DNA from: Owenia fusiformis
Taxonomy: Eukaryota
DNA: 64,000 nucleotides
Direction of reading: 5' to 3'
Assembly: GCA_903813345.2 (NCBI GenBank)
Contig: CAIIXF020000001.1
Coordinates: 5,704,001-5,768,000, forward strand
The notes beneath the pieces were generated by a model. It did no database searches. It saw only the letters and a list, made by a program, of their open reading frames with translations, and was not told where the DNA came from. The translations under genes and the position numbers were made by a program. The number at the start of each line of letters is the position of its first letter. Positions within the stretch are counted from its first letter, which is position 1. Positions 12,003 to 47,373 of the stretch are shown one piece after another.

Positions 12003-12887
12003 TTACTGAAACAAGTCATTAAGATAATCATTCATTTCTTCCTCTCTTGATTTTTCCTCTTGTATTTTGACTGGGCCAGACCATATTGAAGTTATCTCCT
12101 GGCATTTGGGTGCTTCAGACTCCTTAGTGTTAGATATCTGAGGCTCAACCCATGTTGGACTGTAACGCCCACTCTCATGTCGATCTTTCTCTGAAGTTTT
12201 CATCTTTTTATGACTTTTCCTTTTAGTTACTTCTTTCTTTTTGTGATGATAGTTCAGTTTATATGAGCAGTCTGCACAAAGTCGCAATTTCACAAGAGCA
12301 TTTTTCTTTGTCCCTTTCTCTATATAACCAAAGTTCACCTCCCATGTCCTCAGACCTTCTTGCACCGTACACTTTTTATTTCCACATACGAACTGCCCTT
12401 TTCCTTCTATTACCTCCTTCTCTATGCACCATCTTAAAGCAACCTTATTTTCTTTATAGCGACTTAGATCACAGATGGCATATTCTTTGAAAAGTTTTGT
12501 ATAATATTTCTTAGCAAGTCTTCTATCCCATGTGTCATCAGCTTCACCTTCATCCTCATCCCAAAGGAACTGATGGTTTTCACGAATCACATCAATATCT
12601 CTTTTATCTTTACGTGTATCTCGATAAATGTCTTTCATAGAGCCACCATAATACTGTATATAATTGTTCACTAACTGTTTATGACGTGCAAATGCATCTA
12701 AAGATAAATTGTGGAATCTATGGATTTTTCCTTCCTCTTTATTGTACTGATCTGTTACTTCATGTTTGGAAGCTATGCCACTTGTTGAGTGCTTAGCTTT
12801 AGGGATCAGATCACTACGCTTTCTTTTTTTCCTTTCAATGTCACTATCATTTTCAAATTCAGACCCATAGTCTCCATTGTATGCCAT
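12003..12887 (-). CDS. FRA10AC1: Protein FRA10AC1 homolog (spliceosome-associated), 294 aa, intronless CDS
   Basis: Continuous ORF MAYNGDYGSEFEND...DYLNDLFQ with hallmark motifs DVIRENHQFLW, RLAKKYYTKLFKEYAICDLSRYKENKVALRW, GKGQFVCGNKKC and WEVNFGYIEKGTKKNALVKLRLCADCSYKLNY. ATG context tcaaaaATGG. Minus-strand AATAAA at 11774-11779. Confidence 0.95.
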   Translation of the reverse strand: MAYNGDYGSEFENDSDIERKKRKRSDLIPKAKHSTSGIASKHEVTDQYNKEEGKIHRFHNLSLDAFARHKQLVNNYIQYYGGSMKDIYRDTRKDKRDIDVIRENHQFLWDEDEGEADDTWDRRLAKKYYTKLFKEYAICDLSRYKENKVALRWCIEKEVIEGKGQFVCGNKKCTVQEGLRTWEVNFGYIEKGTKKNALVKLRLCADCSYKLNYHHKKKEVTKRKSHKKMKTSEKDRHESGRYSPTWVEPQISNTKESEAPKCQEITSIWSGPVKIQEEKSREEEMNDYLNDLFQ

Positions 12888-19492: not shown

Positions 19493-20098
19493 TGCTTGAT
19501 ATATATCGTAAAGACTAGAAGATGATGAATTTTATTTTATTTCATAATGAAAACTCCACAGATGGCGCTGTTGAAAAGGCAGATGTATGATTGACTGAAA
19601 TAATGTTTTATCGATGCCATCCCGAGCTGTAGAACAGAATTTAAATTTTATTTGGTTTATCTTATATATACATAATTCTATAAAAATTATGAAACCGTAC
19701 AGGTTGCTTCAAATATCATGTTGATCTTGAAAGGGATCTTGAGTTTGAAATCTAGTGAAACATGTTTAAAATCCGAATAGATGGCGGAAAAAGTGGTCAG
19801 AATGCCGGGGTCAGAATATGGATTATTAAATCATATGTAATTTTAGGTACATATATATTTTTTTAACAACGGAAATACACGAACAAACAAATTGTACCAA
19901 GTTAGGATCCTAAAGATGGCTATGTGCAAATAAAGTAAACGTTTACCACCCTTGTTAGTTTCGTTCAGTGTAAATATACCTCGCTATAACCAACTTAGTA
20001 CAATTTGTTTGTTCGTGTATTTCCGTTGTTAAAAAAAACACACGTGAAAATCCAAAATATTAATATATCATTCGTTTACTCAAATAGAGAAAGAGAAA
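19493..20098. promoter_or_regulatory. Putative bidirectional promoter between PET100 (-) and NOP2 (+)
   Basis: The two start codons are about 600 bp apart, head-to-head. AGATGGCG (YY1-like) motifs near 19560, 19780 and a related AGATGGC near 19914. Confidence 0.6.
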
Positions 20099-26000: not shown

Positions 26001-29000
26001 CAGCTGCTCCCCATAGAGAAGGCCACTAAAAGACTGAGAAAGAAGCAGAAGGAAGATGATAAACTGGCAGAGGAAGAGCTCCAGACCAACATTGCAGAGA
26101 CTGAGACATTTATTCTCCCCAGTGGACAGGAAATTGAAAAAGAGTGTATCCTTTATGAATTCCAATGAATGAACTTGTGTTGTATTGTTTATTTTATTGG
26201 CAGTAGCTTTGTTTAAGATGCTTTCAAAATAATTCCTGATTTATTGTTGAAATAAGGTTTTATTCCTTTGATCATGCAGCAGTGCTCCCTCAACATTGTT
26301 TTTATTTTGACATTGTCTTTCACAAGTATTATTGTTCTTTGATTATCCATCACAAACAAATTTATTATTGGCTGTTATGGTTATGCTATGTTTCTTTTCA
26401 TTCTTTGTGTTTGTTGTCTGAGGTTTTCCATCCTCTTATGTTGTATATGTAACTTAAAAACATTTTTCAACTGATGAAAATGCATGGATTTGCATCAAAT
26501 GTCTTAAAATAAATAGAAACATCAAATTAAATATATTTGAATTGATAACAAGGAAATACAATACATCAACCCTCTGTCCCTTATAAGGTCCCTCGGATTG
26601 ATATATTGTATTTCCCTCAGATATACCCTGTATCAAAAACCTCCCATTAAATAACCTCTATTTGAAATGTTGTCTCATGAAATATTGTAACAGGAAATAT
26701 GATTCTATAAATATGTCTTTGATTTCTTTTGGTATTAAAATAAGATGATGACATTCTGTCATGTTCATATCTTGATTATTTGAGTTGTTGTTTATTGTTC
26801 CCTAACTTAATCAGTGGTGCAAGCTGCAGATCTGACACTGGTGCAACAGAGGATCAAAGATGTCAAGGGGGTCCTTGGAGACTTCACCAACAGGCGGCAA
26901 GATGGCAGGTAGGACAACATGTTTGCTTTGGGGCTGTAGGTGAATGTAGATTAACAGTGCAAGTGCTAGAGTGCTTCAACTTTTGTTTTCACAATTCTTC
27001 AATTTTGTTAAAAATTAAAAATGTATAAATGATAAATATTTGCAATCAAGTGGTACAAACTTTGGTGTTGGTGTTGTCTAGTTAGATATGGTCCAATTTC
27101 TATATGCTAGTGCATATGGTGTTAAGTCACATCATAATGTGATTACGTGTCGATTTGACAAATGAGACAAATTCCAAAATGTACTGTGGGGCTACTTTGT
27201 GGAGTTGCTGTTTTTTCTAGTTTGTTGCTGTTGTAGATCTTGAAACAGACCCTGCTCATCATTATTTGTTGTACTTTTAGGTCTAGGAAGGAGTATCTGA
27301 GACAATTAAGAAAGGACCTATGTACTTACTACAGCTACAATGACTATCTAATGGGAGAGCTCATGGAACTATTTCCTAATGAGGTATTTTTTCTATTCTA
27401 TGTTCTATAGTTATTAATATTAGTGGTGGAACCCGCACTCAAAATCTTACCCAAGTCAGAACTTGCCAGAGAACTTTGAAATCAAGTAATTCATTCATTC
27501 TCTGTGGCAGTGCTAGTCTTCAACATACCACCACTAAATGTTTTTGTCATATATGATAATGTAATTGGAATATGAGGCATAACTCCCAAGTTTTTCTGAA
27601 TTTCCAAGTAAAATATAAAGGACAAGTTGAAATACTGCACAGGAATATTTTTAAACAATTTATTTATCCTGTTTCAGATTGTTGATTTCCTTGAGTCTAA
27701 TGAAGTCCAAAGACCAGTCACCATAAGAACCAACACATTGAAGACTCGCAGGCGGGACCTGGCACAGGTATGTTCTATAACATCAATGCATTCATTATTT
27801 TAAAAAACAATGGAATTCTTTTAATCGCCTTGGGTACTGTATTGTGATCAGTTTGCTGGGTGGGTGGGCAGCCAGTCAGTCGGATGGGTGGTCGGTCAGG
27901 TGGGACAGTGGGCGGCAGTCCCGATTAATTTTGTCTTCAGGTTTCCAGCCAAACCATTTCAGAAATTCTTCTGAAATATTCAGGGATCTAGGAATGAAAG
28001 TTAACAACTGAATAGTTTTTGGGCATTCTGGGTTAGGTGGCCATTTTGTAAGTTCTATGTTCTAAAATAATGTCTGTCTAGGTTTGTCTACAGGTTTCCA
28101 GCCAAACTGTTTTATGGATTAATCTGAAATTTTCAGGGATGTTTCTAAGTGTGAAATTTTAGAACTGATCAGTCTTTGAAGTGTACATGAAGGCTTTATT
28201 CTCCCACTTCAATCTGTCCAAGGTTGGTCTCATGATGGAGAATCTTTTTCTATTGTACCATGTGAGCTAACCATATGTGAATTTCATGATATCCTCTGTT
28301 TTAGGCATTGATCAATCGTGGAGTGAACCTGGATCCCATAGGCAAGTGGTCAAAGGTTGGCCTTGTGGTGTATGATGCACAAGTTCCCTTAGGTGAGTGC
28401 CCTTACTTTAGGATATATATACACCTACATAGGCAACTGGTCAAAGGTTGGCCTTGTGGTGTATGATGCACAAGTTCCCTTAGGTGAGTGCCCTTACTTT
28501 AAGATACATATGCGCCTACATAGGCAACTGGTCAAAGGTTGGCCTTGTGGTGTATGATGCACAAGTTCCCTTAGGTGAGTGCCCTTACTTTAAGATACAT
28601 ATGCGCCTACATAGGCAACTGGTCAAAGGTTGGCCTTGTGGTGTATAATGCACAAGTTCCCTTAGGTGAGTGCCCTTACTTTAAGATATATATGCGCTTA
28701 CATAGGCAACTGGTCAAAGGTTGATCTTGTAGGTGAGTAACTAAAAAAGTATATTCATTTTTTAGTCAAGTGCTGTTTTCTCATTGTAAATGCATGTTAT
28801 ATAGTTCTTATATAGTTCTTATACAGTTGAAGTTTTTAAGGTTCAAACTCACAATAATATTCCTAGAGAGGTGTAAACAGCTCTTGATTTCTGTATTTTG
28901 ACTAATGGCCTAGTCACATAGCCCGGCCGATGTCCGGCATCGGTAGAGCTCGGTGGATTTTTTTGGTGCCACCGAGCTCTCCTCATCGGAAGCAGAGCTC

Positions 29001-32000
29001 GGTGACGTGAACGGACTCCGTCCGGACATCTTCAGGCGACCGACCGAACACCGGCTGGTGACCGTACGGAGTCTGTCTCAAAATGGTAGTTTTTTTCTGC
29101 CGATGTGGCAGCAACTACATCGGAAGGAATACGGCCGGTACCCGAGCAGGTAACAGGACACCGTGCGATCGCCGGCCGGGTTGTTAACGGGCTTTGAACA
29201 GTGACTGGCCGATGCTCTGTCCCACATCGGCCGGAGCTCGGCCGCTGTCCGTTAAAAAACCTCGTCCTCTGGTTGTCTCAGATGCACGGGACACCGGCCG
29301 ATACTTGGCCGTGCACTGGCCGACGTGTTTTCCGATGTGGTTACGATGGGGCTGCGATGACATGATGAGGGAGCTCGGTGAGAGCCCGGTGAAATTTAAA
29401 CTCGAAGTTAAAATTTCACCGAGCTACCACCGATGCGGTTTTAAGCAACAAACGCCACGGATGTCCGGCCGGTGTTCGGCCGAGTTCGGTGAAAATTGCA
29501 TCGCTGGCTCATCGTAACATTATCGGCCGGGCTATGTGACTAGACCATAAGTAACCATTTCTTACCCCTTCCATTGAAGAGTACAATGGGTCTCTACAAC
29601 ACATTGTGGGGTGCTGCCAGCATGGGTTGGCATGGCACAATGCCATGCATATCCTATTGCATAGTAGTTGGTAAACTATTTTGAGTCAGTTTTTATCATG
29701 CATAAAAAGGATATTGTTGTCAGGTTGGCGGGTGGGTGGAGTCTCAATTTAACTGTCATTGTGATTCCAGGAAATCACTTCACAGAATTACTTCAAATCA
29801 CTACATACAATGTTACATGGTAAGAAGTTCTAGAAACTTTGTTGTAGGTTCAAAGTTTGAAGGATTATGGGTCACAAATTCATGTGGATTGGATACTGGC
29901 CAAGAAGTTTACAGCTAGTACTTTGAAAATTTATATGTATCTCATTTTATTTCATTTTAGGTGCCACCCCAGAATACCTAGCAGGACACTACCTTCTACA
30001 GGGGGGCTCCAGCTTTCTCCCAGTGATGGCTCTAGCCCCACAGGAGAATGAGAAGCTACTTGACATGTCTGCAGCTCCAGGGGGGAAGACAACATATGCA
30101 GGTAAATTGTTAGGGCCAAATGCAGGTCTTACATTCATAAATGATGTCATGTGTAATATTACAGCTGTATTAATGAAAGCACAGGTCTTATATTTGCTTA
30201 TGATGTCATGTGTTATATAACAGCTGCATAAATGAGAAACAGGGGTCTTACATTCATTAGTGATGTCATGTGTTAAATTACAGCTACTTTAATGAGAAAC
30301 ACGGGTCTTATATTCATTAATGATGTCATGTGTTATATTACAGCTGCTTTAATGAGAAACACGGGTCTAATATTTGCGAATGATGCCAATGAAGACAGAG
30401 CCAAGGCCATAGTGGGCAACATACACAGAATGGGTATTACCAACACTGTAGTGACCACATATGATGGGAGGAAATTTCCCAAGGTACTGTAATATGTACA
30501 TTTACTTAACATGCTGTTTATGCATACTTTAGTCACAGATTTACAACTTGAAACATGAGATGTTTTGTTTTTAACATACATTATATCATTTTTTGTGTGT
30601 ATTATTTCAAGGAGGTCTCATGAATTGATGTGATTTGAGTTTATAATTAAGATGTGATCTGAGTTCATAATTAAGATGTGATTTGTAGGTTTTTTCCCTG
30701 TTATTGATCAGTTTCTAGTAGGACCATAGTAGCTGGGACAGAAAGTTCCAAGTCTGTATATTTTCTTTCGTTTCTTCACTTTTCAGAGTTAAGTCACTAC
30801 ATTTTGCATACATATTCCATGGAGGAATCCTAAGATAGAATTTATTTGGTGTTAATTATAATTTATTTGTTAAAAATAGGGAAACATTTGATTCTGACTG
30901 GTCTATAATCAAAATTTGCCATTTTGTGCGACAAATGCAGCATTTTGACGTAATTAATAAAAATCACTACTTTTGGTATAATAATTCCAAAATAAGCACA
31001 TGTCTTCTTATTCAGCACACGTGTAACTGTTTTTAGGTAATTGAGGCATTACCGAGAAGAATGGTATACAGAAATTTTATATTTTGAATAAAACAACCTC
31101 TGAAGATGCTTGCATTATTTGAGATTTTGGTGTTTCAATGGCTTGAAAAAATGGATTGGGTAGGGGAGTGGCATACATTTTGGGCTTATTCCAGTTACCA
31201 TTTCAATCAAATGAACAGTGACACATTTAATATCATTTTAAAGCTTGTAACGTGTGCTTCAATTTGGTACCCATATTATAATGTCAGATGCTGTATTGTG
31301 ACACCACAGTCGTACCAAATGACTAAAAAATGGAAAAATAAGCACAAAATGCGGCAAAATAATGGTTTTATTCCATCATTGTTTTGCCAATTCACTACTT
31401 GCCACAATCAATGAATGCATTTCTCATGAAGTACACTTCCAATGCACGATCTGATGACTGGCAAAAAATAACTAGGATGATAGAGAGTAGGATGATTAGA
31501 GACAGCATATTGTATATGTCATTTATAACTTGGATTTTTATTAATTACGTCAAAATGCTGCATTTGTCACACAAAATGACAAATGTAGACCAATCAGAAT
31601 CAAACGTTTCCCTATATTTAACAAATTGATTATAATTAAAACCAAATAAATTCTATGTTAGGATTTCTCCAGGGAATATGTAAATATACAGACTTTGGAC
31701 TTGTTTTGTCCCTGCTATTATAGTCCTTAGATTTTAAAGTTAAAAGAAAAAGTTAAACTTGCTAAGGAGCTACTGCATTTTCCAATTCTCTCAGAGAACA
31801 TGTGAAGAACATATGGTTCTTTGTACTTTTTAGCTCACATGGTGCGCTTTTTAGAATGAGCCTTATGGTTTTATTTTTTGATTTGGAAGGTATAGTTATT
31901 CCGAGAGAACTTATGCCTTGTAGGTAATGAGGAACTTTGACCGTGTGTTGCTAGATGCACCATGCAGTGGTACAGGTGTTATATCAAAAGACCAGGCAGT

Positions 32001-35000
32001 CAAAATTAACAAGGATGAAAAAGACATTGCCAGGTAAATATCAGAATGTACTTTTCATAACATGCACAGTTGGTATATTTATTACATACACACGCCAACA
32101 TACTTCATATCAATGTATTCACTAGTATCTATTGCTGATGTTGAAAGGTTCAGTGTCCACTTAATCATTTACTGTAATTTACTCATAATCATCACAGTTG
32201 TCATCTCCACATGGGGGACATGCATCATACGGACTGAAATCAAACATGTTAAGCACTTGGGATGATGTTTCATTAGTATCACACAATTACTATCAGAAGC
32301 ATAGCCCAAGAATCTTAAAAGTAGTTTGGCAAATGATGGTTACTAATTGACGACTTTGAGATGATGGGAAAAAATACTCTCATAAGACTTTATTTTTAGT
32401 TTAAATCGAAAAGATATCTGAAATAAAAAACTTCTGTATGTTTTCTTTGCAAAGCACTGGTGGCTTGTCTGATGCCAATGCATGAGTAGACTATACAGTG
32501 TGTCTCAAAAAATGTTACACTTACAAAAAAATTCAATATCTTTCAGGATTTTGACTTTTCCCCTAAAATATACTTAAATACCAAAAGAGCTGTCTTTTCT
32601 CGAATAAATTCACACCATCAGATTCAAAATTGGTCCATGGTTGGCTGCACAGGACAGTGGTTGGACATGTAGAATGCTGTGGACTTTGATAACTTGATAC
32701 GATCAATGAAGCAGTTGGGTCTTTCCTGGATAGAATTCCAAGATTTCGTTGTCAGAGTGGTCAATTTTGTTACATATGATGACAACAGGATGGTGCCAAT
32801 CAAGGACAGATTTTGAATCTGATGATCTCAAATTATTTGAGAAAGATTTGTCTTTTGGTAGCCAAAGTATATTTTAGGGGAAAAGTTCTATGAAAGATAT
32901 TGAACTTTTTATAAGTGTAACATTTATTTTGAGACACACTGTAGAGAGAGATAAGATTCATTGAACAGTTGAAGCTATAAAAGTTGACCAATTGAAGCAC
33001 TAATTGCTTTCCTATCATAGCAACTTACTCTACACATCTCATAGACCTGACATCTACAACATCATCTGTATCACATGTGACACGTACAGTCTGTCCCCCT
33101 CTGCACTCGAGGTAGGCAGTGCAGCCAATGTAACACCTGTAGTAGTTAGTTTGGTTAGAGAAATCATCCCAAAGGGTGCTACCTCCCTGAGTTCTCATGT
33201 AAGGAGGAACTTTACATTTAGCTGGTGAGCCTATGGAGTCAAACTTTTTAGCACACCCTTGGCTGTTATACTGTGATCAGTTTGCTGAGCAGGCAGATTT
33301 TGTCCCACTTAATTTTGTCCGTGCATTTCCAATGAGGTTTTAAAGTCTAGACAAAAATTCTTAGATGAATTTTGACACCAAAATCAGGAATTATTATATT
33401 CGGTCTGTGTTTAGTGTGTAGGTTTCAGTTTTGAAATCTTGTTATAGCTAAGAAATTAATACAGTAATTGTTTGGATAATTACAAAACAACTCCCTCACT
33501 TAATAGGAAATGAAGATGAAGGTATAGGAGCTTATCTGTTTTATTTATGTATTGCCACACTTGAATTTTTCCATTTAGCCACTGTTAAAAATGTTTGGCA
33601 AATGAATAAGAAAAAGAATTGTAGTGAACTACATGTAATGATACTGATATGTGTTTGTGATACAATATAAGAACTCCTAATTTGTTGTGGTGTAATAAAT
33701 ATAATACCTGAGGTAGTCTGGTTGACCTGCGCAATTATCACATTGTGTCTGTCCATACACACCAAACTGCTTCGCTGGAATTTCCAGTCCAATGGATTAT
33801 CTCAAAATTGTTAACCAGATAACAACAATGCCAAAGTGTAGCAAATGCCATGGAACATCTAATGAGTTTCAGACAACACTGCTAGAGATCATATCTCAAC
33901 AATTGGCTCCCATGAATGTATTGCCAAAAGAAAATGTGTCTTTCATGCATGTACATGTACATATAAAACATGTAAAATGAAACCTATAATAATGTCCTCC
34001 ATTTTCCAAAATGGCCGACTTTTTGAGCAAACTGAGATTGTAACTGCCATCATTTTTATTTATTCTGACAGCCTGTTTTTTTTATTAGACAAAGTTAGAT
34101 TTTGAACTAAATTAATATTCTACATAACATTTTGCATTAAAACATAATGAGATAACAGTTTTATATATTGTAACTACAGTACTATAAAATCTTCACTAAA
34201 ATGGTTGCCATTTTGAAACCGAGAGCCATTTTCAGAACTTTCATTTTCAACTTGTACTCACAACAGGCAGACATAATATGTAACAGATATTGTACCTATG
34301 GTATTTGAGTAATTGCCTGAACAGATATATGGATAGATTGAGGCATTTTTAGCAAATATTAACATTAGATAAAAGACCAGATATGGTATGGCAAATGATT
34401 TAAGACAGTCATATTTTTTAACATCTATATTCTGACCACTTATACAGCATTTTAAAACAATTACACCTCACTTGTGGAATTCTTCAAACTGATTACGAAA
34501 CCATTCTGGTTTCAGATGCATTTTTTACTACAATTTGAAGAGTTCTACTACAATGAACATGTTTTCCCTGAAGTTATCAGGATAATAAAAATATGAATAC
34601 AACTATCTGAAAACCCCTTGTTTAGGACTCCATCTCAACGCATTTTTCAAAATGTCTGACTTAATTTCTAAAAAGAGGACCTTACTTTTCTCATTTTAAC
34701 ATTAAAAGTTTCTTTTGTTTTGTACTTGGAAACTATAATACAGAGTAATGTTATTTATTGTGGTAAAAGATATGACTATCTGAGGTCATTTGCCAATTAC
34801 AATAGCTGGTTCTTTTCCCAAAAATTGTAAAATTACTTCTTGCATAGTTTGTAAGTTTGTGAAGAGGTATTATATTTTCCCAATGATAAAATTCCATTTA
34901 CCTGTTAGAATGCAAAGCACAAGCAGCATGCAAGTATATACATGTAGTTTCTCCATTTTGATAACCTGACAGGTGTTGTTTATAGTTTATAAAGTGTTTG

Positions 35001-38000
35001 GTTGTGTAAATCTCATGTTATCATTAGTTAAAGGACATATTATTTAAAATTTAGATAACAGTCATGTGTTTGGTGTTGTTATATTATTTAAAATATTCTA
35101 GATATTCCATTTAGCTTTGCAAGTGAGTTTTTTAGGTAGTGTCTCCTCATTCCAAATTTTAGAGTTTTGGAATGAAAAAATAAATGAGATTATGGAAACC
35201 AGATTTACAGTAGTTTTTTCTTGGTTAGTTTTTATCTTGTAAAATTAAGAGTCCAGTACTACCCAATGTTTTGATATATAAGCAAGTAACATGTGTTAAG
35301 CAGGTCAGTCTTTCTCATGTATTCTATTTACCATTTTATAGAACTCCATTATTGTACTAATAGTATGTACAGACACACCCACAGTATATGACACACCCAC
35401 AGTATATGACACACCCACAATATGCCATGTCCAAATGTCAGCATTTGTCACATATTCATACACATTTTCAGGATAATTTTTATCAATATTTACGAAAAGT
35501 GTTCATCAACTTTAAAAATTGAATTTTCTTTTGAAAATGTGACTTCTAGGTTGGGTAGATTCCCCATATTAGAAAATCATAAAAAGTGTAATTAGATGGA
35601 TAGTATTTCTTGGAACTGGACGTATTTTCATTTCATAACTATCAGACATATATTAGTAATATGAAAATTTATCCACTAAATTTGATGAATATTCAAATTA
35701 AAGGGAACTTTCTATTTGGCCTCTATTATATATGCCATGTTATCTGACCCAAATTAGCCACCTGGTGGTGAAACTGATAACTACTATACTGGCATCTGGG
35801 TTATTTCATCGTCTATTTCTCCACAAAGGTTACACAATCTTTCATGTTCAGGTTTTGGGTGTGGTATTACATGTATACCCAGCTCTATTTGCTATTAATG
35901 AGAACTTAACCTCAGTCGGGTAAAGGATTGCCTATGATTTTTGTTCTGAAGGCTCAGATATTGCTCTAGACCTACTTTGTATTATTTATATATTAGAGCT
36001 GACGTGTTTACACAATCAAACGCTTTTCTGAAGTCAATCATAATACAATATATCGATTTCTTTAATCGTCTAAAGTGAGATATAAGCGTACTTAATAAAT
36101 TGTTACTTGTAATATAAGTTCTACTCGAAGGCAAATTTTGAAAATGAATGCTGGTTTCAAGATGGCTACCATGTTTAGCTTATTAAGTACTAATGAAGAT
36201 TGAGCAAAAAATATAGGATATTTAATTAGGTCCAAATTTAAATTTAAAAAACAGAACATAAACATAAAATTAATTTATTGTATTATTTTTCTCTAATCAG
36301 TCTTTGAATCAAGAAAAGGACGGGGTGCATTGTCGGGCAGATATCCCACGGTCAAAATGGAACTATTTATGTGTAAAATGAAGACTACAATGTTCGATAA
36401 TACTTTGGAAAATATAAGTGTTTGGACACACATAGGATGGGATTGGGATCATTAAGATCAGCAAGGGTGTATTGCTATTGACATAGGGATATGCACCATT
36501 GACTTAACATGGGAATTTCTTCATATCCCAATATAGGCGGTCATTGGTTTCCATCGATTATCATAAAAATACCGAAAATACACTATAACCTGAAGAGACA
36601 AAGTAAATAATTTTACAATCTGACACAAATGTTATATCACATCAGATGGGATAATAGAATCTGCACCCGGTTGTTTATTAAGTTGTACGCAATGTCTTTG
36701 AAATCCAGGACAGTAAAGTGAATTCCTGCAACACAGTTTCATATACAGTCTTCTCAATCCGGAAGTGAAGTCTGTCCATATTATATTACACACGTACAGT
36801 AGCACTAATCCTGGCCCCCAGTTAAGTTGTTAATGTCAAAGTCATCCTCGTGTATTTGTGGACATTCATCTTCATAATCATTTTCCCCACATGGAGGACA
36901 GACCTCTTCGATGCTGGAAATAATCAGGAAATTATTGATATATTTTGTTCATTGGGATTTGCTACTCTATGGAGTTTAATAGATGGTACCTAGTGTGATA
37001 TACCATTGGAAAGATCATCCTGAGTTATATTAAATCACCAACTCTCAAGTATTTTGGATGAAATTTACTTATATTTTCATGATGTATTTCATAGTTAATG
37101 TACCCTCCTTCAGCATCTTTTATTGCATCAAAATGAGAAGGATATGACCTCAGCAATATGTCAAAAATTTTGTTTGCATTCCACTTCTTCTTCTACAAAA
37201 ATATCTTCACCACTACTGACTTGCCCCTCTATATGCTACACATCAAACCCTATCCAAAAATTGGTTCAATTCACTGCCATACTTATGTTGTCATCTTGAA
37301 TTCCTTTGTCTTTTCTGATCCTTGATGCCTTATTTGTAAAATTCTGCCTAATATGTCAGATCACCATGTTACTAGGCGGGGGGGGATTAACTCCAGAGTT
37401 CAAAGATGACATTCGCTTATTATCATGTAAACCTGTATTGAGATGATGTATACCTCTGATGGTCCAAATAGATAAACAAAAATGGCGGAATCAAAATAAC
37501 ACTTCGAATAATATCATGTTAATTTCTGGGGTGTTAACCAATATCATAACTTGTTATTTCTCATCAAGAAAAAAAAAGATGTAAGGAGTATGCATTGATT
37601 AAAACAAGAGGGGGCAAGACTTATTAACACCCTGATACAGGGTGACTAATATATTTTATATTTATTGTTATGACATGAGACGTGACAGTCATTAAAAATA
37701 TACAGGGTGTCAAATAAGATCCATTCCATTGCTACAGAAAAGTCAATCAAAAGATGACAACATACATACACCATTGAATTATGTTGGTTCCACCCAAACC
37801 ATGGTTCTCACAAAGCGAATATTGATTCTTTAGTCGTGAACCACACGTTCCTCTCTCCAAAACATATTTCTCCACTCACTCAGCAAATTCCAACATAGCT
37901 TTGTAATGGTTTGCAATGTTCGTGAGTAGACAAATATGATCAGGAAAGAGGAATTGGTGGTTCACGACTAAAGAATCGATATTCATGTTGGAGAACTGTA

Positions 38001-41000
38001 AATGAATGTCTGAATACATATTTCCAAACTTTACATGGGGACTTTAAGGTTTGACCTGTAACAGGGGGACAGGACTTATTTGACACCCTATATACTGTAT
38101 ATACATTGTATATTGCTTTACTTACTCCTCACAGCGTACTGTTTTGGGGTCTACCACCATATCATCATTGGTGTCACAATTCACACGTTGAGGTTGGCCA
38201 TTTGTGCAAGTAATGTAGGAGTTACAATCTCTGAAGCATCTGATCCCATTTGGTTGGTTGGGGCAGTCATCACAGGGTGAGACAGCCACTGTAGAGGGAA
38301 CTTGTGTAGCAACTGTAGAGGGAACTTGTGTAGCACAGTTGTCTCTTGTACCACAGGGTGGACAGACATCTGGTATACTACAAACACAATGTATATGAAG
38401 AGGCTAATTGCACTTTCTACTGACAGCGTGTGAGTGAAGAGCTGTTGCTGAAATGTTGCCTTTTTACTGTAATATTGTCCTTTGTGTTTTTTTTGTGGTT
38501 TTTGTACTTTCAAAGGGAATGATCGGAAAACTGGTCTGTATCAGAATACATTGCCATCTGTTACCATATCTTTCATAATGGTAGATGGGAAATGGGAATC
38601 GTCTTGAACTTTTTATTTTCTATGAATTCAGTATGTGTTTGTGTAAGTATGTTCACAGCACATTTATCTTCGATAAAGATTTTTTCCATTTTCACTTGAC
38701 TTTATAGTGGTGTGGTGCCAAATCACACCATGAGTGCAGATTTTGCCAAAAGGAGACAATACTTACTACTTCCTAATAATCTTTGTCATGTTATGTACAA
38801 AATGATGAGGTTTTATAAAATATATTTTGTTTTGTGGGATTTGCTACTCCAGGGAGTTGCTGTTTTTCTAGTTCTATAAATATTAATGGTAAATGTCATA
38901 CTATACATTCATTTTAAGTAAAAATACTTACAGTGCACATTCCAGGGTGTCTGGGTCTACTACGAGGTTAGCGTCACATGTCACTCTGATAAGAAGACCT
39001 TCAAGACATTCATGATACTCCTTACAGTTGATGAAACACTTAGTTCCACTTGGTGCATTGGCACAGTCATCACACAATGATGGACGTTGGGATGTAGCAA
39101 TTGTTGGAGCACTTGTTGTAGTAGTTGTGGTAGGGGGTGGAGGTGGCTGAGTGGTGGGCTCAGGAGGAGTGGGGGCCTCTGTTGTTGTGGTTGGTTCTGC
39201 AGGGGGGGTAGTGGCAGGTATGGCTGTTGAGAGACTGGCTGTTCCACATGGAGGAAGTACCTCAGCTATCCTATATATTATGAATATATCAAAACTTACA
39301 GGTTCATCTACATCAATAATCTGCAAAAGGCTAACAGCCCATTTAAAGCAGATATATATAGCAGGTTATATTTCAACTTTCTAGTATGATTTATTTTTCC
39401 AATGAACAAAGTTCAGGTTCAAAAATGTGTCCTATCAATCTGTTCATCTGGCCAGACATTCTTTGCAAACTGAATGTGATTTCAGTAGGTAGATCTGCTG
39501 TTGAAGAATAGTTTTTAGTAGATATAGAACTGTCTGTATTCATTGATTTTGAATGAGCTCATGTGTTGAAGAGCATAAGCTCATATTGGTGGATTATCAA
39601 ATTACCAACCCAAAATATATCAATAATGGCTCATGTCTAGAGACATGAAGTTAAATTGTTAGTAATTAGATTATTTGTCAGGGGGTCATTAACAGAACTT
39701 TCGCAAAGTTACAAATTCATAATGCGTTACTTTATGAAATTCGTAAATATTTAAAAAATTACGATTGACTTACGAATTCGTAAAGTTACGAATCAGCCAT
39801 TAACAGAATGCTTTCGTAAGTCATTCATAAGTTTTATCGTTTGTAAACAAATTTAAAATTGTGACGTCATCTTATATCATTATTTAGCACAAATAAAAAT
39901 ATGATGTCATTTGATATCATTGCGCGTTGTGATTAAACCTGTCTCCGCGATTTCAAAGATTCCCAGCTCAGAAACATATTTGCTTATCATGTAAGAATAG
40001 GTGGATATTTTAGCTTGAAACTTAACATGCATATAAAGAACAATTTCTTTTTGCCAACCTGTATACCTTACATAAGAACTTGATGAGAAATTTGCCATTC
40101 GCAAAGTTATGAAAGGGTCTGAGGTGCTATTTAAGTTACGAACGAAAGCATATGTGACGTCATTTTTTCGTAACTTTGCGAATCGTTCGTAACTTTGCGA
40201 AAGTTCTGTTAATGCACATTTACCAAATTCGTAAAATTAACAATTGACTTGCGAATTCGTAACTTAACAAAAGTTCTGTTCATGGCCCCCAGATTAATTA
40301 AAACCAATTTGTGATAACATTTGAGGTAATATCCTTTAGATTCAGAGGTCTCTTCTGAGTAATTGTAATTAAGATATCTGCAACTTTATTATCCCATCGA
40401 ACGAAGTTCGGAGGGATATAGGGAACGCCTCCGTCCGTCCGTCCGTCCGTCCGTACGTCCGTCCGTCCGTCCGTCCGTCCGTCCGTCCGTCCGTCCGTCC
40501 GTCCGTCCGTCCGTCCGTCCGTCTGTCCGTCCGTCCCGATTTTGTTCATATTTCGTACATATATACCCTATGGGGGTAGAAGTTCTGCTCGAAAGCCGGT
40601 TTTCAAAATGGCCGCTCATTTCAAAATGGCGGCCATTTTAGTGCCGATTTTACAGTAATTTAGGTGTAATATGTAAAACTGTAATAGCAATATGTTTTAA
40701 ATGTAAAAAAATTATAAAGGACATTAATAATGCTACAAATGTAGATATTAAAGAAGCACATGGCAGCCATCTTGAAAAATGGCGGCCTTTACTCGTCATT
40801 TTACGATTTTTGCTATAACTCAAAAAATAGTGGAGCGATTTTGTTCATATTTGGTATGTGAATACTATAAGCATTGCACACTGTCTAAAGACACTTTTGG
40901 TAGAAGGCGGCCATTTTTCAAAATGGCCGCCATTTTAACATATTTTACTATAACTCGAAAAGTAGTGGAGCGATTTTGTTCATATTTGGTATGTGAATAC

Positions 41001-44000
41001 TATAAGCACGGCACACTGTCCTATGACACTTTTGGTAGAAGGCGGCCATTTTGAAAAAAAATGGCCGCCATTTTAACGTATTTTACTATAACTCGAAAAG
41101 TAGTGGAGCGATTTTGTTCATATTTGGTATGTGAATAATAAAAGCATGGCACACTGTCCTATTACACTTTTGGTAGAAGGCGGCCATTTTGAAAAAAAAT
41201 GTGAAAAATGGCCGCCATTTTATTAATGTATTTTACTATAACTCGAAAAGTAGTGGAGTGATTTTGTTCATATTTGGTATGTGAATACTATAAGCATGGC
41301 ACACTGTCTATTTCTAATGACACTTTGGGTAGACAGTGGCCATTTTGAAAAATGGCCACCATTTTAACGTATTTTACTATAACTCGAAAAGTAGTGGAGC
41401 CATTTTGTTCATATTTGATATGTGAATACTTTAAGCATGGCACATTGTCTAATAAAACTTAGGGGAGTAGTCGGCCATTTTGAAAAATGGCCACCATTTT
41501 TATGTGTGTTATTTTACAAGTACGTGTGCGATTTTTCAAAAATTTTAGAGGTGGCTACTTAAAAGCATATTATTTCTTCTGATAACTTGGCTAGTGAGCA
41601 ACCATTTTGAAAATGGTGGCCTTTCTGGTGTGTTGTTTTATGATATTTGCTATTCGTTTGTAAAAATGCCAGCCATTTCTGTTCGATGGGATTCGCTACG
41701 CTTTGGCGTTGCCGTTGTTCTGGTTTCATTTTGTTATATCATGATTCATTTATCTCTAAATGAGTAAAGTTTTGGATATGCTCAAGAAGAAAACAAATTT
41801 TGTTGTTGAGATTTGATCTCCTTGGAGTTGCTTACATTTCGTAATGCTATAAGTCACAGATATTTTAAATAAGTCACAGATATTTTACTTTTGGATTACA
41901 ACTTGAAAATGATTGAGATCATGATGTTTGTACATTTCATATGTTGCATAAGTGAGAATAAGTACAATGAACTCACGGCCTGCATGTTCCGGTTGTTGAA
42001 TCCACCACTGTACCAGCTTCACACACCAATGTATTACTTTCTCCATTCTCTGCACATATCACCAACACCTTATATGGTTGAAGATTTTCATATTTTAATA
42101 CAAAGGCCTTGAATTGAACATGATGCAGAACTGCCAAATTTGAATTGAACGATCGTGAACAGTCAAACTGTACATAATATTGTAACTATGTCTCAAACTG
42201 CTTTTGCAAAATTATTCAGAAACATTGTGATACCTCATAAATAAGTCATTATTTCATACTTTAATGTAGAGTCTGTTTAAAAATGCTGATTTAAATGTGA
42301 AGCTATGATTGGAAGGGAAGTTAACTCCACCATGTTTATTATTATTATTACCTGGCAATCTGAATAACACACAGTACCAGGTGTTGCGTTTGTACAGTTA
42401 CATGGATTAGGGTCTGTGGGGCATAGTCCTACATTCTCCCCTGTACCACATGGAGGGCAGACATTATATGGCCAGTCACAAACACCATTGTTCACATTAA
42501 AGACAAGACCTGAAAATGAAGCATGATTTGAATTGCTGTTTGTATCATTTTTATAGCAAAAGTGCTATATTGCCGTCATTTTGTGCTGATGGGTAGGTGG
42601 ATGGACAGATGTTCAGGCAGGCAGCCAGGCGCTACATAAATCAAATCTTGTCATCAACTTTCCAGGATAACCGCTTACCTATTTAACTTGAAATTTGTAG
42701 GCCATGCTGGGTAAATTGTGTTATGTTATATGGTAAGAAGTTCTAGAGCTGATTAACTTTTCGGCAGCCATCTTGCAGTCTGGTGGCCATTTTGGAAGTT
42801 TTTTAGATAAGTCTTGTCATCTCGATTTCAGGAAAACCAATAAACAGATTAACTTCAAATTTTTACACATGTTACATGGTAAGAAGTTCTAGCCCACACT
42901 GCTATGTTTTAGGTACAATATTGTTCGCCCTGTGCCTTGTTGTAACGGTAATTTGGTGTTTTTTCTAGTTGTTACGTTTAAAGAAAACTATTCTTTGCCA
43001 TACATGGGAGGAAATCGTAAATGAGCTAAAAGAGATGCATCTTTTTAAAGCAATAATGATGTGATATTTCTACTGACTCTTATATTAGTCTCTTTGTGTT
43101 TAGATAGATGGCCTACCATCAGGGCAGAATTGTCTGGTTGCAAAGTTTCCATTGCTGCATAAGTAGTATGTTGTACACCCTGTCTCTATATCGGGGTAGT
43201 AACCATCTGCTCTCCCTGTGCAATTCTTGTCTGACCCAGTTCCACATGGTGGAGGAGCTTCTGCTTCCCTATATACACAAGTTGTGTGGTTTCAGGATAA
43301 CTAAATATATTTTAAGTAATGTAAGAGGTTATTGTCTGATACTTATTTAGTTTGATTCACAGTGGTTTGTGTTTAAATGTTGGTTGGTTTTGGAATCTAA
43401 AAACAGGGCATTAACATGACAAAATGTCATCTCCTAGTTGCTCACAATATTATGAGGTATATCTTAAGTCAGATTTGAATTTCTGAGAAAAAAACCTTTT
43501 TGACCTTGAGAAGGTCATTGAAGGTCAAATCTTTTTTCACCTTGAGAATGTCATTGAAGGTCAAATCTATAGTCAGATTTGAACTTTTGAGAAATTGTAG
43601 ATGATTTTGAAGTCAGATTTGAACTTCTGATAACTTGTAGGTGATTTTGAAAAAAAATTGTCAGATTTGAATTTCTGAGAACTTGTAGGTGATTTTGAAA
43701 AAAAATTGGTCAATTTGAACAAGTTGAAAAAAGAACTTTTAACCTTTTTTCACCTTGAAAAGGTCATTGAAGGTCAAATCCTAAATATTCTGGTAGTCAG
43801 ATTTTAACTTCTGAAAACTTGTAGATGATTTTGAAAAAATTCAAGTCTGTCTAAACAGTATTTGTTAAGTTATTGGAAGTTGTAAGAATTTGTTACAGAC
43901 GCCGATCACCAACCACTGATTGCCAATCACCAACCACCAACCACCAATCACCAACCACTGATCGCCAAACCACCTACCGCCATCAAAAAACGGAGACCAT

Positions 44001-47000
44001 AACAATATGTCACCACTTTTTGTTGGTGACATAATGAAGAATTAATTACAGAATTAGTTATTAGATATGGATGCTTGACTTACGGGACACATCTTGCATT
44101 TTCAAAGTCAATAACTTCATAGTCTCCACAGGTTATTACGACTTCTACCTTGTTGAAACACCTAATTAATTCTTTACAGCCCACAGTACAGACATAACCA
44201 TCTGGTCGATTTGTACAATCACATTGCCCACACACCAGCTGTACACCTAAGTTATAAACAATTTGGTGCTGTATTGCTCATAGATACTCAATATCTCGTA
44301 CAAGTAATAGCATACTTTTGAGCAATAAGACAGATTAGCTTTGTGAGTTTAGAGGTTTTTCTGTAACATACAGAGTTTGAGACAAAACTAATTATTTATG
44401 CAAATAATATATAGAATGGTAATTACACTTGCACATAATACTGCATCTTAGAATGATAATAGTAACATGTTGGGAGTTATTGAATCTCAACCACTCTTTA
44501 TATTGCTGCGACAATTTCTGGGCTGTTTATACAACCCGCAATATTCTAGGTATTACTTAAAGGTGTTGTTATAATTATTAATTATTAAATTAAGACTATT
44601 ACGTGACAATATGAATGTGCTCACCTGTAACTGCCACCAAAATCAGTAAAAAACAGGTGTTGGACATCTTCATTTTGCAGTGACGTATTTTAAAAGGAGT
44701 AATGCTGCTTGTCAGTTTGTCAGTGTTAAAGGTCTCATAAAGGGGATTTGGGATGGGCTGAAAGTGTGGCATCTCTTTATAGTAAAATATCTTGAGGTTT
44801 ATATGAAACTTGTTTAATGGTAAATTGTATAAAAGGCAAATTATTTTAAGGCATAAACTAGAAGTAGTATTTGTTTATATTATATCTACCATGAGGTTGA
44901 TAACTTGAATGTTATGTATCAGGTATGCCCCTTATAGAGGCCTCATCTGAATTCTGTAAAGTACAATAGAATCTTGACTTTTTAGATAGCATATATGGGT
45001 CAAATACTGTCGAATATGCATGCTTGTTGCAATGCTTGACTCAATAGACTAAATGCCATTAAAAGTTGTTAATCAGCTTTAGTATCTCCCTAGAGTACAT
45101 GCTATCAAATCATGAAAATTAGAATATCTTCAAGACAAGATCTTATAAAATGACATAACATTGTGGGTCAGTTTAAACTTGAGACACCTGTTATCAGTAT
45201 GTTGTTTTAACAGTGGACAATGAACTTTGGCAACACACAATGGACTCTCTTGAAAGCCCATGAACATACTTAATCATGATAATTCATAGACTATTGTCTT
45301 TTAAAAAGAACAACTTCATTAATAATTAGTTATTTATTTCTATATTTTAATTTTAAAATATAATATAGGTGTCATATCTCATGCTCTTCAGTCTGTTTTC
45401 ATGACAAGCATCCAAGTTGTAAGTTACAAGTTCTACAATTTTATGTTTATAATTTAGAATTCATACATTCTTACAGATGTGCCCATCTACAGAAGGAGCT
45501 GCTCCTAGCTGCTATTGACTGTTGTGATGCCAAGTCTAAGACTGGAGGATACATCATCTATTCTACATGCTCTGTTATGGTAAGTTATTATACCAAGGAA
45601 TTACTCTTCGTTTTCCTGTCTAACAGAAATTAAAATAACTTAGAATTCAAAATCAGTTTAATACTGGGTTCTCCCCAGAATCTAATTGCATGGCGCTCCC
45701 CCCTGCTCACTCAATTTACCCCCCCCCCTGTCCCCCCCCTGCTTGCTTCACCCATCCAGGTTCCTCAATATAATCATAAACAGGCCAAGGGAAGAAGTCT
45801 TCGATTTTGAGGCAGCATGGGGGAGGTGGTTTGACATGCACCCCAGAAGATGCAGGGACAGGAGGCTTTAAGGAAATTGAACAATGAACACTACAACCAT
45901 ATTATCATGTAGTATTATTAAATAAAAGGTTTTCTAAATGAGATTTTGCAAGTGAAGAAATAATCCTGGGGAGCTCACTGTAATGAGTAATACATGTATT
46001 TTTTATGTTTTCAGTACCAGGAGAATGAAGATGTTATTGAGTATGCCTTGAAGAAACGCAATGTTAAATTGGTGTCTACAGAGCTGGACTTTGGCAGGGA
46101 GGGATTCACTAAGTATGTGCTTTTGTTTCATTTTATCTTGTATTAAGGTAGTTCTATGCTCAGAGGCCTAAATTTAATCAACAATAAATCATTCATCTAC
46201 AGAAATGGTCCTGATTTCTGTTTTTATCAGTATGTGTAGAAACTCCATCACATAGTATGCCCAAAAACTAATCAGTTCTTCATACCAAAAGACATCCCTA
46301 AAGATTTCAGATCAATATACCTAACGATGGCTTTAAACATGTAAAAACACTTTACACTTACAGACAAGAATTTAGCACAGAATATCAAAAATTGTCCCTT
46401 CAAATTTACCCGATTGCCCCAAAACTCAAAGACACCAGTAACAAGGACCAAATCAGGTGATTAGTCCTTGTCATTTTCCCACGGAACAAAGCTTCGAGAC
46501 GGATATAGAAAAGCTGTCCGTTTGTGTGTCTAGGGCAATTCAATTAAGTACATGTAATTCAATGCCACTAAGTGACCCCCATTTGTGGTAATGCCTCATG
46601 CAGAAGTGTGATTCTCATATTTTTCTAATCCTACAGCTCACATTTTTCAGGATGCAAGGCAAGAGGTTCCACCAGAACATGAAGTTGACTCGCAGATTCT
46701 ACCCTCATGCACATAACATGGATGGCTTCTTCGTGGCTAAACTGAAGAAATTCTCCAACAAAATCCCTGGACAAGGTACAGGTTCTTCCATTTGACATCT
46801 ATACAGCTACAAAGCTAAGAATTGCTACTAAAATGATGATACTGAGAAATGCACTGATTTGGGTTCAAGCACAATTTTTGATAATATAAAAAATATTAGA
46901 ATGTGTAGAAGTACATTTAACATTTGACTGAAAAAAATCATCCTATAAGTTTTTTAAGATAGAGCATTCAAAGCATTCAAGTATAGAGTAAATATATTGC

Positions 47001-47373
47001 TGTTTCAGAATCTGCAGGAGCAGAGGAAGAGAGCATTGACACAGAGGATAAGAAGGAATCTGATGATGAAACCACATCATCGCCTATATCCTCCACTACA
47101 GATAAAGCACAACAGAAAGGACAGAAAAATAAAAATAATCAAAGAGATAATTCAAAACCAAGAAGTAATCCCAAGAAACGCAAAATAATTGAAAGTGAGA
47201 CTGCCGATAAGGAAGAGAATAGTGAGGATGTTTCAAAATCTGAGTCAGTTAAAAAACAGAAAATGAAAAAGTCTCAATCATCTCTCTCTCCAAGTGGTAA
47301 ATCTAAAGTGAAGAAAGGTTCTACTCCAAGAAAAAATAAAGGAAAGATTTTTAAGAGGAAGAAAAAGTATTAA
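20099..47373 (+). CDS. NOP2: NOP2/NSUN1 (p120) 28S rRNA cytosine-C5 methyltransferase, about 752 aa, 18 coding exons
   Basis: join(20099..20204,21891..21930,22753..22859,23820..24020,24305..24411,25252..25350,26004..26145,26815..26908,27281..27383,27678..27767,28305..28392,29961..30101,30344..30483,31924..32033,45477..45579,46015..46112,46651..46775,47009..47373), total 2259 nt in one frame. Motifs: [92 protein letters not shown]. Confidence 0.96.
20710..21123. mobile_element. Kolobok-like palindromic MITE with TTAA TSD, inserted in another MITE
   Basis: TTAA|ggtcagggtgcatgatggg … cccatcatgcaccctgacc|TTAA; nearly the whole element is an inverted repeat. Confidence 0.85.
26146..26814 (+). other. 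U12-type (minor spliceosome) intron of NOP2, GT-AG subtype
   Basis: 5' splice site GTATCCTTT at 26146; branch site TTCCCTAAC at 26798-26806 just before the AG at 26813-26814; no polypyrimidine tract; removal restores the NOP2 frame (EIEKE-L-VQAADL). Confidence 0.9.
28337..28740 (+). repeat. 91-bp tandem array (4 full copies plus a partial) duplicating the 3' end of NOP2 exon 11 and its donor site
   Basis: Units beginning cataggcaa at 28337, 28428, 28519, 28610 and 28701; the four full units contain cccttag|gtgagt. Confidence 0.95.
28906..29547. mobile_element. GC/CpG-rich PIF-Harbinger/ISL2EU-like MITE
   Basis: TIRs tggcctagtcacatagcccggccgat / atcggccgggctatgtgactagacca; TAA flanks (or AT if the TIRs start one base inward). 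Confidence 0.85.
30120..30386 (+). repeat. ~60-bp diverged tandem array duplicating the acceptor and first codons of NOP2 exon 13
   Basis: acag|ct acceptor-like sites ending at 30164, 30223, 30283 and 30343; recurring ggtctta...tgatgtcatgtgt. Confidence 0.9.
30720..31728. mobile_element. Diverged ~1-kb foldback element
   Basis: aggaccatagtagctgggaca… / …tgtccctgctattatagtcct, with inner arms at about 30829-30960 and 31540-31662. Confidence 0.7.
32179..34956 (-). CDS. Nested antisense gene B: 94-aa secreted Cys-rich protein with one CBM14/peritrophin-A-like variant domain; complement(join(32179..32233,33029..33136,33708..33774,34902..34956))
   Basis: Phase-compatible GT-AG exons give [94 protein letters not shown]. 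Signal-peptide exon, minus-strand TATAAA at 34979-34991, AATAAA at 32078-32083. Clear paralog of the repeated domains of nested gene A. Confidence 0.85.
32496..32941. mobile_element. Tc1/mariner-like MITE in the last intron of nested gene B
   Basis: TA|cagtgtgtctcaaaa…tgttacactta … taagtgtaaca…ttttgagacacactg|TA. Confidence 0.8.
35960..36150 (-). pseudogene. Degraded non-LTR retrotransposon (LINE) reverse transcriptase fragment
   Basis: Minus-strand translation [44 protein letters not shown] contains the LINE RT DFxKAFDxV motif and an in-frame stop. Confidence 0.75.
36805..44673 (-). CDS. Nested antisense gene A: 437-aa secreted chitin-binding (CBM14/peritrophin-A-type) multidomain protein with a Pro/Thr mucin-like linker
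   Basis: complement(join(36805..36913,38126..38377,38932..39270,41977..42068,42352..42509,43117..43268,44084..44246,44625..44673)), 1314 nt in frame. Signal peptide [17 protein letters not shown]; canonical domain [53 protein letters not shown]; four variant domains ending in PPCG; minus-strand TATAAA at 44776-44781. Confidence 0.9.
39679..40292. mobile_element. MITE-like element with internal ttacgaa/ttcgtaa repeats
   Basis: gggggtcattaacagaacttt … aaagttctgttcatggccccc. Confidence 0.65.
40386..41727 (+). mobile_element. Helentron-associated (HINE/DINE-1-like) non-autonomous element
   Basis: Subterminal inverted repeats atcccatcgaac (40391) and gttcgatgggat (41681), (GTCC)n at about 40431-40535, about six ~120-bp central tandem repeats (40810-41500), 3' stem-loop gctacgctttggcgttgc. 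Confidence 0.8.
43410..44035 (-). repeat. Dispersed repeat with internal tandem units; related copies at about 2640-2865 and 47725-47905
   Basis: Shared agtcagatttgaacttctgagaacttgtag…ttttgaaaa units and a caccaaccac microsatellite. Confidence 0.7.

Follow-up and report, generated by a model that had tools for sequence, protein, structure and literature searches.

Why one intron of the NOP2 gene in the annelid Owenia fusiformis is far longer than all the others, and what this intron carries, is the question raised by a stretch of contig CAIIXF020000001.1 (NCBI GenBank assembly GCA_903813345.2, positions 5,704,001 to 5,768,000 of the forward strand). We addressed this question in the whole stretch of 64,000 nucleotides (nt), hereafter the window, to which all positions refer. 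Our results indicated that the locus is very probably an ordinary host–nested arrangement, in which two opposite-strand genes for secreted proteins of one lineage-restricted family, hereafter gene 1 and gene 2, lie inside the NOP2 intron. Their ATG-to-stop spans (7,866 and 2,778 nt) make up 79% of this intron, and the nested genes largely account for its length.

The long NOP2 intron and its two minus-strand genes

The host gene was identified with a translated exon query (29960–30100), which matched an annotated Owenia fusiformis protein of 784 amino acids (P0002, an unnamed product in NCBI) at 100%; the other top matches of this query were NOP2 proteins from molluscs, annelids, and further animals. 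All 19 blocks of P0002 were placed exactly on the plus strand, from 19762 to 47370. With regard to the NOP2/NOL1 methyltransferase family, P0002 matched the Pfam profile PF01189 (RsmB/F) with 245 bits against a cut-off of 27, over profile positions 1–199 of 199, and it carries both catalytic cysteine motifs, PC in motif IV and TC in motif VI. The long intron is intron 15 in the annotated model, or intron 14 if translation starts at the methionine of MGQKRDF in annotated exon 2; the first-pass annotation, which was made from the sequence before this analysis and counted it as intron 14, probably assumed the latter start.

RNA from four runs was aligned to 29800–47500, namely stranded raw reads (X14, X15, and X16) and assembled contigs (X13); the counts of RNA joints given here, and the absences, apply to the joints listed, beyond which there were 197 further joints. 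The splice over 32034–45476 was found in 48, 36, and 56 reads of X14, X15, and X16, respectively, and in one spliced contig of X13, and five further NOP2 junctions within 29800–47500 were also seen in all four runs (six introns from 30102 onward). Thus, the long intron is removed normally. Its boundaries were exactly those first assigned to a 13.4-kb intron (13,443 nt, GT..AG, spliced in 4/4 runs), and the remaining 17 introns of annotated NOP2 measured 233–1,686 nt, in agreement with the earlier value of less than 2 kb. It had also been pointed out that the intron splits the catalytic motifs; the DAPCSG and YSTCS exons are indeed separated, but this is without functional meaning after splicing.

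Within the long intron, minus-strand open frames showed a recurring pattern that is rich in cysteine and includes a PPCG motif. All six PPCG motifs obtained by translating the 64-kb window in six frames were on the minus strand inside this intron, as were all 29 high-scoring segment pairs of a tblastn search of the window with the gene 1 model. Gene 1 comprised eight coding exons with a 1,311-nt open frame for 437 amino acids, running from the ATG at 44673 to the stop at 36810–36808, and GT..AG was present at all seven introns. Five of these introns (44247–44624, 43269–44083, 42510–43116, 39271–41976, and 36914–38125) were fixed by X13 joints with CT..AC, that is, minus-strand GT..AG; the placement of the other two (junctions 42351/42069 and 38931/38378) follows from the reading frame, the GT..AG ends, and the spacing of the domains. 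Independent support for the E6/E7 and E7/E8 junctions comes from the annotated protein P0121 (CAH1772592.1), which contains both. This truncated model of 179 amino acids is the only public annotation of gene 1; it begins at an out-of-frame ATG (39249) within exon 6, skips 39210–39072 (139 nt of the Thr/Pro-rich linker), and then continues through exons 6, 7, and 8. Because an X13 contig was gapless over 38935–39269 and ran on into exon 5, both the start of P0121 and the skipped stretch disagree with the RNA.

The long intron could in principle be an assembly artefact, with a foreign segment joined between two NOP2 exons, but we consider this extremely unlikely. The record is a chromosome-scale contig of 62.2 Mb that also carries P0121, and the ends of the intron are canonical. 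In addition, there was NOP2-sense coverage within the intron: in the bin over gene 1 exons 3–4 (42802–43392), the stranded runs showed 1.6–1.9x in NOP2 sense versus 0.08–0.39x on the opposite strand, a low coverage that fits read-through of the NOP2 pre-mRNA.

Gene 2 has a paralogue in Owenia, a protein of 108 amino acids (P0122) on a different contig of 40.8 Mb. The four-exon model of gene 2 from the first-pass annotation was open, had GT..AG at all three introns, and encoded 94 amino acids; its cysteine spacing of 2-8-3-5-9-12-6-2-4, counted by hand, was that of P0122, and the first eight intervals were those of gene 1 domain 4. This model arises by splicing AG/GT (33708/33707) to ACAG/G at the homologous arginine codon (33137/33136). 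Approximately 550 nt upstream of the domain exon, there is a partial copy in which two conserved cysteines are kept and which decays with a stop directly after an AGG arginine codon. With acceptor 33209, as in the alignment with P0122, a three-exon form is obtained in which these two cysteines become W and F; since these cysteines are lost, the three-exon form is less likely, and the four-exon model is favoured from its frame and cysteine pattern. The coordinates of the host and nested features are collected in the table.

Table. Coordinates of NOP2, its long intron, and the exons of gene 1 and gene 2, with the basis of each
Feature	Position	Strand	Basis and remarks
NOP2 host gene (RsmB/F-type rRNA cytosine-C5 methyltransferase)	19762..47373	+	19 annotated coding exons; P0002 mapping, Pfam, RNA junctions
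NOP2 exon with motif IV (..LLDAPCSG..)	31924..32033	+	P0002 mapping; RNA joints
Long NOP2 intron, 13,443 nt, GT..AG	32034..45476	+	Exon mapping; RNA junction
NOP2 exon with motif VI (..IYSTCS..)	45477..45579	+	P0002 mapping; RNA joints
Gene 1 exon 1	44625..44673	-	ATG 44673, hydrophobic signal-like N-terminus, phase 1; X13 joint 44243>44622
Gene 1 exon 2, domain 1 (variant CBM14)	44084..44246	-	X13 joints both sides; CBM_14 17.5 bits
Gene 1 exon 3, PPPCG linker and start of canonical CBM14 domain 2	43117..43268	-	X13 joints both sides; CBM_14 32.9 bits
Gene 1 exon 4, end of domain 2, CPPCG, start of domain 3	42352..42509	-	Acceptor by RNA joint; donor 42351 inferred (frame, GTAATA, cysteine spacing)
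Gene 1 exon 5, rest of domain 3	41977..42068	-	Donor by joint 39269>41976; acceptor inferred from the C-x3-C-x5-C spacing common to other domains
Gene 1 intron 5, 2,706 nt, repeat-filled	39271..41976	-	(TCCG)n 40430–40536; 138-bp satellite x4.9 at 40797–41487 (TRF)
Gene 1 exon 6, LPPCG, linker with 63% Thr/Ser/Pro, domain 4	38932..39270	-	Gapless X13 contig 38935–39269; 3' part and exon 7 junction in P0121
Gene 1 exon 7, CPPCG, 24-nt repeat linker, domain 5	38126..38377	-	100% match to P0121; X13 donor joint 36913>38126
Gene 1 exon 8, CPPCG, acidic tail, stop TAG 36810–36808	36808..36913	-	AATAAA at 36679; frame and P0121
Gene 2 exon 1	34902..34956	-	ATG 34956, signal-like N-terminus, phase 1; TATAAA 34991, 34984; 12/15 residues as in the P0122 N-terminus
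Gene 2 exon 2 (four-exon model), C-x2-C pair	33708..33774	-	Frame, splice sites, cysteine spacing
Gene 2 exon 3 (four-exon model)	33029..33136	-	84% identity to P0122 over 45 amino acids; three-exon alternative starts exon at 33209
Gene 2 last exon, CPPCG, acidic tail, stop TAA 32181–32179	32179..32233	-	AATAAA at 32083

Transcription of NOP2 and the nested genes

Gene 1 was abundant in X13, in which its contigs had a depth of 119–204 compared with 9.7 for the NOP2 contig. The pieces of these contigs showed only 0–3 differences each from the locus, and thus their origin from a paralogous locus is unlikely. By contrast, no reads were found on any of the five X13-supported gene 1 junctions in X14–X16, and the depth on the gene 1 strand in these runs was 0–0.7 in the non-repeat exon bins 36301–36891, 38074–38664, and 42211–43392 and up to 1.3 in bin 38665–39255, whereas the NOP2 bins reached 10–53. 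Given the depth in X13 and the lack of junction reads in X14–X16 with NOP2 on, the expression of gene 1 is conditional. As a host–nested pair, gene 1 lies wholly within one NOP2 intron, with NOP2 transcribed in four of the four runs and gene 1 in one. The first-pass annotation had regarded the nested genes as tissue-specific and had named junctions in stranded RNA as the check; conditional expression is consistent with the former for gene 1 and does not extend to gene 2, for which no RNA joint was among those listed. As for the latter, the stranded runs X14–X16 gave the NOP2 splice but no gene 1 junction reads, the joints of gene 1 coming from the X13 contigs.

It had further been suggested that nested expression could interfere with the host, that is, that antisense transcription in secretory cells collides with that of NOP2 and lowers or truncates the NOP2 RNA. 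The geometry permits such collision, with opposite strands and nested spans of 79% of the intron, and the available excerpts of two mammalian studies describe nested genes as common and document interference at some host–nested loci (PMC3192792, PMC13309782). However, X13, the run strong in gene 1, also included a NOP2 contig from which the intron had been correctly spliced out, and opposite-strand nested genes of Caenorhabditis elegans were reported, in the part of the source at hand, to induce their hosts rather than repress them (PMC12274878). Single cells are not resolvable in bulk data, and X13, a bulk run with both spliced NOP2 and gene 1, decides neither way for them. Nothing in the four runs supports interference, and we regard it as very improbable. 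Rather, within the nested arrangement, NOP2 and the nested units would probably be transcribed independently, in different cells or at different stages.

The arrangement thus resembles other host–nested pairs of animals: the nested genes are wholly in one intron, on the other strand, each has a start, a stop, and introns of its own as well as candidate signals for a promoter and for poly(A) addition, and the host is spliced normally. No unusual difference from such pairs was observed, and what is new is only this pair, a NOP2 host with a lineage-restricted CBM14 family.

Peritrophin-A domains and the weight of the evidence

Both nested genes encode cysteine-rich proteins with secretion-like N-termini, which agrees with the signal peptide first noted in each; these hydrophobic N-termini were judged by eye. 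In gene 1, the hydrophobic N-terminus extends up to the exon-1 donor and is followed by five cysteine-rich domains and a linker with 63% Thr/Ser/Pro. When nine minus-strand frames were scanned with Pfam, five matched CBM_14 at E<=1, one of which (exon 3, 32.9 bits) was above the cut-off of 22.1 bits; P0121, which represents the C-terminal half of gene 1, also exceeded this cut-off (32 bits). By Pfam, therefore, the predicted product of gene 1 is a peritrophin-A/CBM14 (PF01607) protein. Domain 2 has the canonical arrangement, C-x14-C-x5-C-x10-C-x12-C-x6-C, which is a close, although not exact, fit to the six-cysteine spacing of peritrophin-A quoted in the excerpts of PMC10619976 (CX15CX5CX9CX12CX5-9C). 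The other four are variant domains that keep C-x5-C-x9/10-C-x12/14-C-x6/9-C with additional cysteines in front: a further cysteine stands between canonical C1 and C2, and at the N-terminus there are two extra cysteines in domains 1, 4, and 5 and one in domain 3.

Gene 1 is like insect peritrophins and intestinal mucins and EHEP of Aplysia in its signal-like N-terminus, tandem six-cysteine domains, Thr/Pro-rich linker, and CBM_14 match. Unlike in peritrophins, four of the five gene 1 domains and the gene 2 domain have an extra cysteine at the start (C-x1-C or C-x2-C) and one more between C1 and C2. A C-P-P-C-G-x4-8-C segment follows domains 4 and 5 of gene 1 and the domain of gene 2 and is partial in domains 1 and 3; C-P-P-C-G itself follows not only domains 4 and 5 but also the canonical domain 2. 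When the domain open reading frame (ORF) of gene 2 was compared by phmmer with 1.84 billion representatives, there were six matches at E<=1e-3, and two at E<=1e-10, P0122 (71% identity) and P0121, both from Owenia. The family is thus scarce in the databases, and in this search and among the matching annotated proteins, sequence relatives of the variant domain were found solely in Owenia.

Structure prediction for P0121 with AlphaFold gave a poor model (mean predicted local distance difference test [pLDDT] 53; predicted template modelling [pTM] score 0.32). With this low-confidence model, the only two significant Foldseek matches were structures of EHEP from Aplysia (8in6 and 8in3; E 3e-5 and 2e-4), and the next were the CBM14 domain of chitotriosidase, Avr4, Der p 23, Blo t 12, and tachycitin (E 0.1–1.1); peritrophin-A/CBM14 structures occupied 9 of the 16 top-ranked rows at the same mean pLDDT. 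According to the excerpts of PMC10619976, EHEP consists of three peritrophin-A domains, and both EHEP and Der p 23 are reported as not binding chitin. Because of these two non-binders, the modelled fold, which we take as supportive only in view of its low confidence, favours a secreted peritrophin-A protein and does not by itself indicate a chitin matrix.

The nested proteins might thus use the peritrophin-A fold for a role other than chitin binding, for example, with dietary polyphenols or other gut ligands, or in tube cement, although we consider this rather unlikely. In favour of such a role, the top structural match, EHEP of Aplysia, is a digestive protein with three peritrophin-A domains that, in the excerpted text, binds phlorotannin and not chitin (PMC10619976). 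Moreover, four of the five gene 1 domains are non-canonical variants with extra disulfides. On the other hand, domain 2 is a canonical CBM14 domain with the usual six-cysteine spacing, and several CBM14 domains joined with a mucin linker form the classic peritrophin layout. The genome preprint of Owenia, in the portion available, also reports early expression of chitin-synthesis genes and conspicuous chaetae in the larvae, which are chitinous structures (10.1101/2022.02.05.479245); these speak against a role without chitin and make chitin a reasonable but unproven ligand of the predicted gene 1 protein. Accounting for both genes as chitin-matrix genes, as the first-pass annotation did, was thus upheld in part: the CBM14 matches of gene 1 are above the cut-off (32.9 and 32 bits), chitin binding follows from the domain only, and the gene 2 ORF, with 12.5 bits and E 0.17 against CBM_14, falls under the Pfam threshold. 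P0122 had no Pfam match at E<=0.1, and its Atlas look-alikes were all CBM14 clusters, but with values of 0.88 and TM 0.40–0.46, under the bars stated for them, so that they provide no more than a lead.

Under the nested-gene reading, we propose that gene 1 would give a secreted protein of 437 amino acids with five disulfide-rich domains of peritrophin-A/CBM14 type, the Thr/Pro-rich linker of which is probably O-glycosylated. Most likely, this protein would bind a polysaccharide, for example chitin, as a component of a lining or of the extracellular matrix, in the manner of peritrophin-like mucins. Gene 2, if active and spliced as modelled, would give a single-domain version of 94 amino acids.

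Several points weigh against this reading. For gene 1, the RNA support comes from one run (X13), as assembled contigs from which strand and level are unreliable; X14–X16 showed approximately 1x or less (up to 1.3) on the gene 1 strand, with no reads for the five junctions, and junctions 42351/42069 and 38931/38378 were not among the joints listed. As to function, the fold is an unsafe basis for chitin binding, given the reported non-binders EHEP and Der p 23 (PMC10619976, excerpts). For gene 2, no RNA junction was among the joints listed, and its depth in X13 (0–3.8) was not above the intron background; the gene 2 exon was found in no annotated protein of 80–2,000 amino acids, only P0122 being returned (one of three candidates). 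The three-exon form would be without two conserved cysteines, and the stop of gene 2 precedes the end of its similarity to P0122. The earlier claim of two complete minus-strand genes with eight and four coding exons therefore stands unevenly: both frames are open, and five of the seven gene 1 introns have RNA joints, whereas gene 2 has none among those listed.

These points on gene 2 bear on a second possibility, that gene 2 is not working and is instead a degenerating duplicate of a P0122-like gene, whether as a pseudogene or as a copy that was never expressed. The lack of listed joints, with only background depth in four of the four runs, and of an annotated protein for gene 2 would be expected of such a copy, as would the change of two conserved cysteines to W and F when three exons are spliced, the early stop, beyond which the similarity to P0122 persists through two in-frame stops, and the decayed domain fragment with a stop at approximately 33748–33662. 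However, the four-exon model is open with GT..AG at 3/3 introns and retains all ten cysteines of the mature part in the spacing of the paralogue, the 45-amino-acid core is 84% identical to P0122, and the signal exon and its phase are retained; in addition, tissues and stages are only sparsely sampled by four runs. We therefore hold decay of gene 2 to be possible but doubtful, and retain gene 2 as a putative nested gene.

Nesting is common in animals, and nothing new on NOP2 follows from it. The main value of these results lies in annotation, because the public set has a truncated gene 1 of 179 amino acids, with a start in the wrong frame and 139 nt skipped, and a gene 2 model was not found. 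The models of 437 and 94 amino acids define a small, Owenia-restricted variant of peritrophin-A with extra disulfides and a PPCG motif. In this annelid, the lineage of which is sister to most other annelids, the variant could serve as a marker of a secreted matrix, chitinous or otherwise.

Duplicated splice boundaries and other features of the window

Tandem copies of splice boundaries were observed at several places of the locus. On the plus strand at 28305–28735, a unit comprising the final 58 nt of NOP2 exon 12, its GTGAGT donor, and 33 nt of the intron is repeated in tandem with a period of 91 (4.4 copies, 96% identity, with the repeated donor end at 28337–28735), and this array leaves further near-identical donors downstream of the annotated exon 12 donor; because 91 nt is not a multiple of three, splicing from a later donor would change the reading frame. 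At 30102–30374, NOP2 intron 13 (30102–30343, 242 nt) consists almost wholly of a 60-nt unit, present in 4.2 tandem copies, that contains the TTACAG acceptor of this intron and the first bases of exon 14. The last acceptor of this intron was used in the RNA (54, 47, and 65 reads); an earlier one would insert 20 residues, because the 60-nt unit is in frame. In gene 2, 33137–33774 on the minus strand holds two partial copies of the domain exon with complementary decay and AGG/T at the homologous point of both. The putative donor AG/GTATTA (33708/33707) and acceptor ACAG/G (33137/33136) are both at this AGG-T arginine codon, and at the protein level, the decay in each copy affects the would-be intronic side. 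A blastn comparison between the two partial copies was not significant, with 23 of 36 nt alike by hand, and no intron was present at the homologous point of the variant domains 1, 4, and 5 of gene 1, each of which is in a single exon.

We tentatively propose that the locus may record introns made or reshaped by tandem duplication of exon–intron boundaries, in gene 2 intron 2 as well as in NOP2, although we consider this less than probable. For gene 2 intron 2 (33137–33707), a segment of the domain exon would have been duplicated, and splicing would then join AGG/T of copy 1 to AGG/T of copy 2, after which each copy decayed on its intronic side; the repeats of NOP2 intron 13 and of the exon 12 donor would be less advanced examples of this process. 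By a published route, as described in the excerpts available (PMC3265369, PMC4974935), new introns arise when an exon segment that contains AGGT is duplicated in tandem, and the duplicated boundaries in NOP2 and gene 2 fit this route and may have formed by it. Like this model, the putative donor and acceptor of gene 2 share AGG-T at homologous points of two domain copies; unlike it, the copies are no longer significantly similar as DNA, so that gene 2 presents a resemblance and not a shown case. If the proposal is true, a way of gaining introns that is rarely documented could be studied in Owenia in unusually fresh examples, and the duplicated boundaries are the sole feature of the locus of possible interest for studies of intron origin.

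The rest of the long intron consists of repeats, including a (TCCG)n tract, a 138-bp satellite, and other short arrays, together with a weak reverse-transcriptase fragment at 35982–36179. The repeat regions showed very high RNA depth, and 0.54 of the aligned material per raw-read run continued into unlike sequence; since about half of the aligned RNA runs on in this way, the data point to copies of these repeats elsewhere in the genome. In all three raw runs, many alignments begin or end exactly at 38834, within gene 1 intron 6, which is probably the edge of a dispersed repeat with expressed copies elsewhere. TATAAA upstream and AATAAA downstream of the nested genes are present where the first-pass annotation had seen them; their frequencies in this AT-rich window are 0.88 and 1.35 per kb per strand, respectively, and we rejected them as evidence for the nested genes because a background of about once per kb per strand gives them little weight.

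A scan of 19000–48000 with Rfam found no RNA family at the gathering score, and no intronic small nucleolar RNA was detected. The bin 28001–30000 has 44% G+C compared with 31–37% elsewhere in the window, and at 28800–29600, within NOP2 intron 12, both strands carry long open frames, three of which were scanned with Pfam and gave no match. Upstream of NOP2, an uninterrupted minus-strand frame of 338 codons at 12006–13019 matches the Pfam family Fra10Ac1 (E 1.2e-52) and apparently represents an FRA10AC1-like gene that is intronless, or a single large exon of one.

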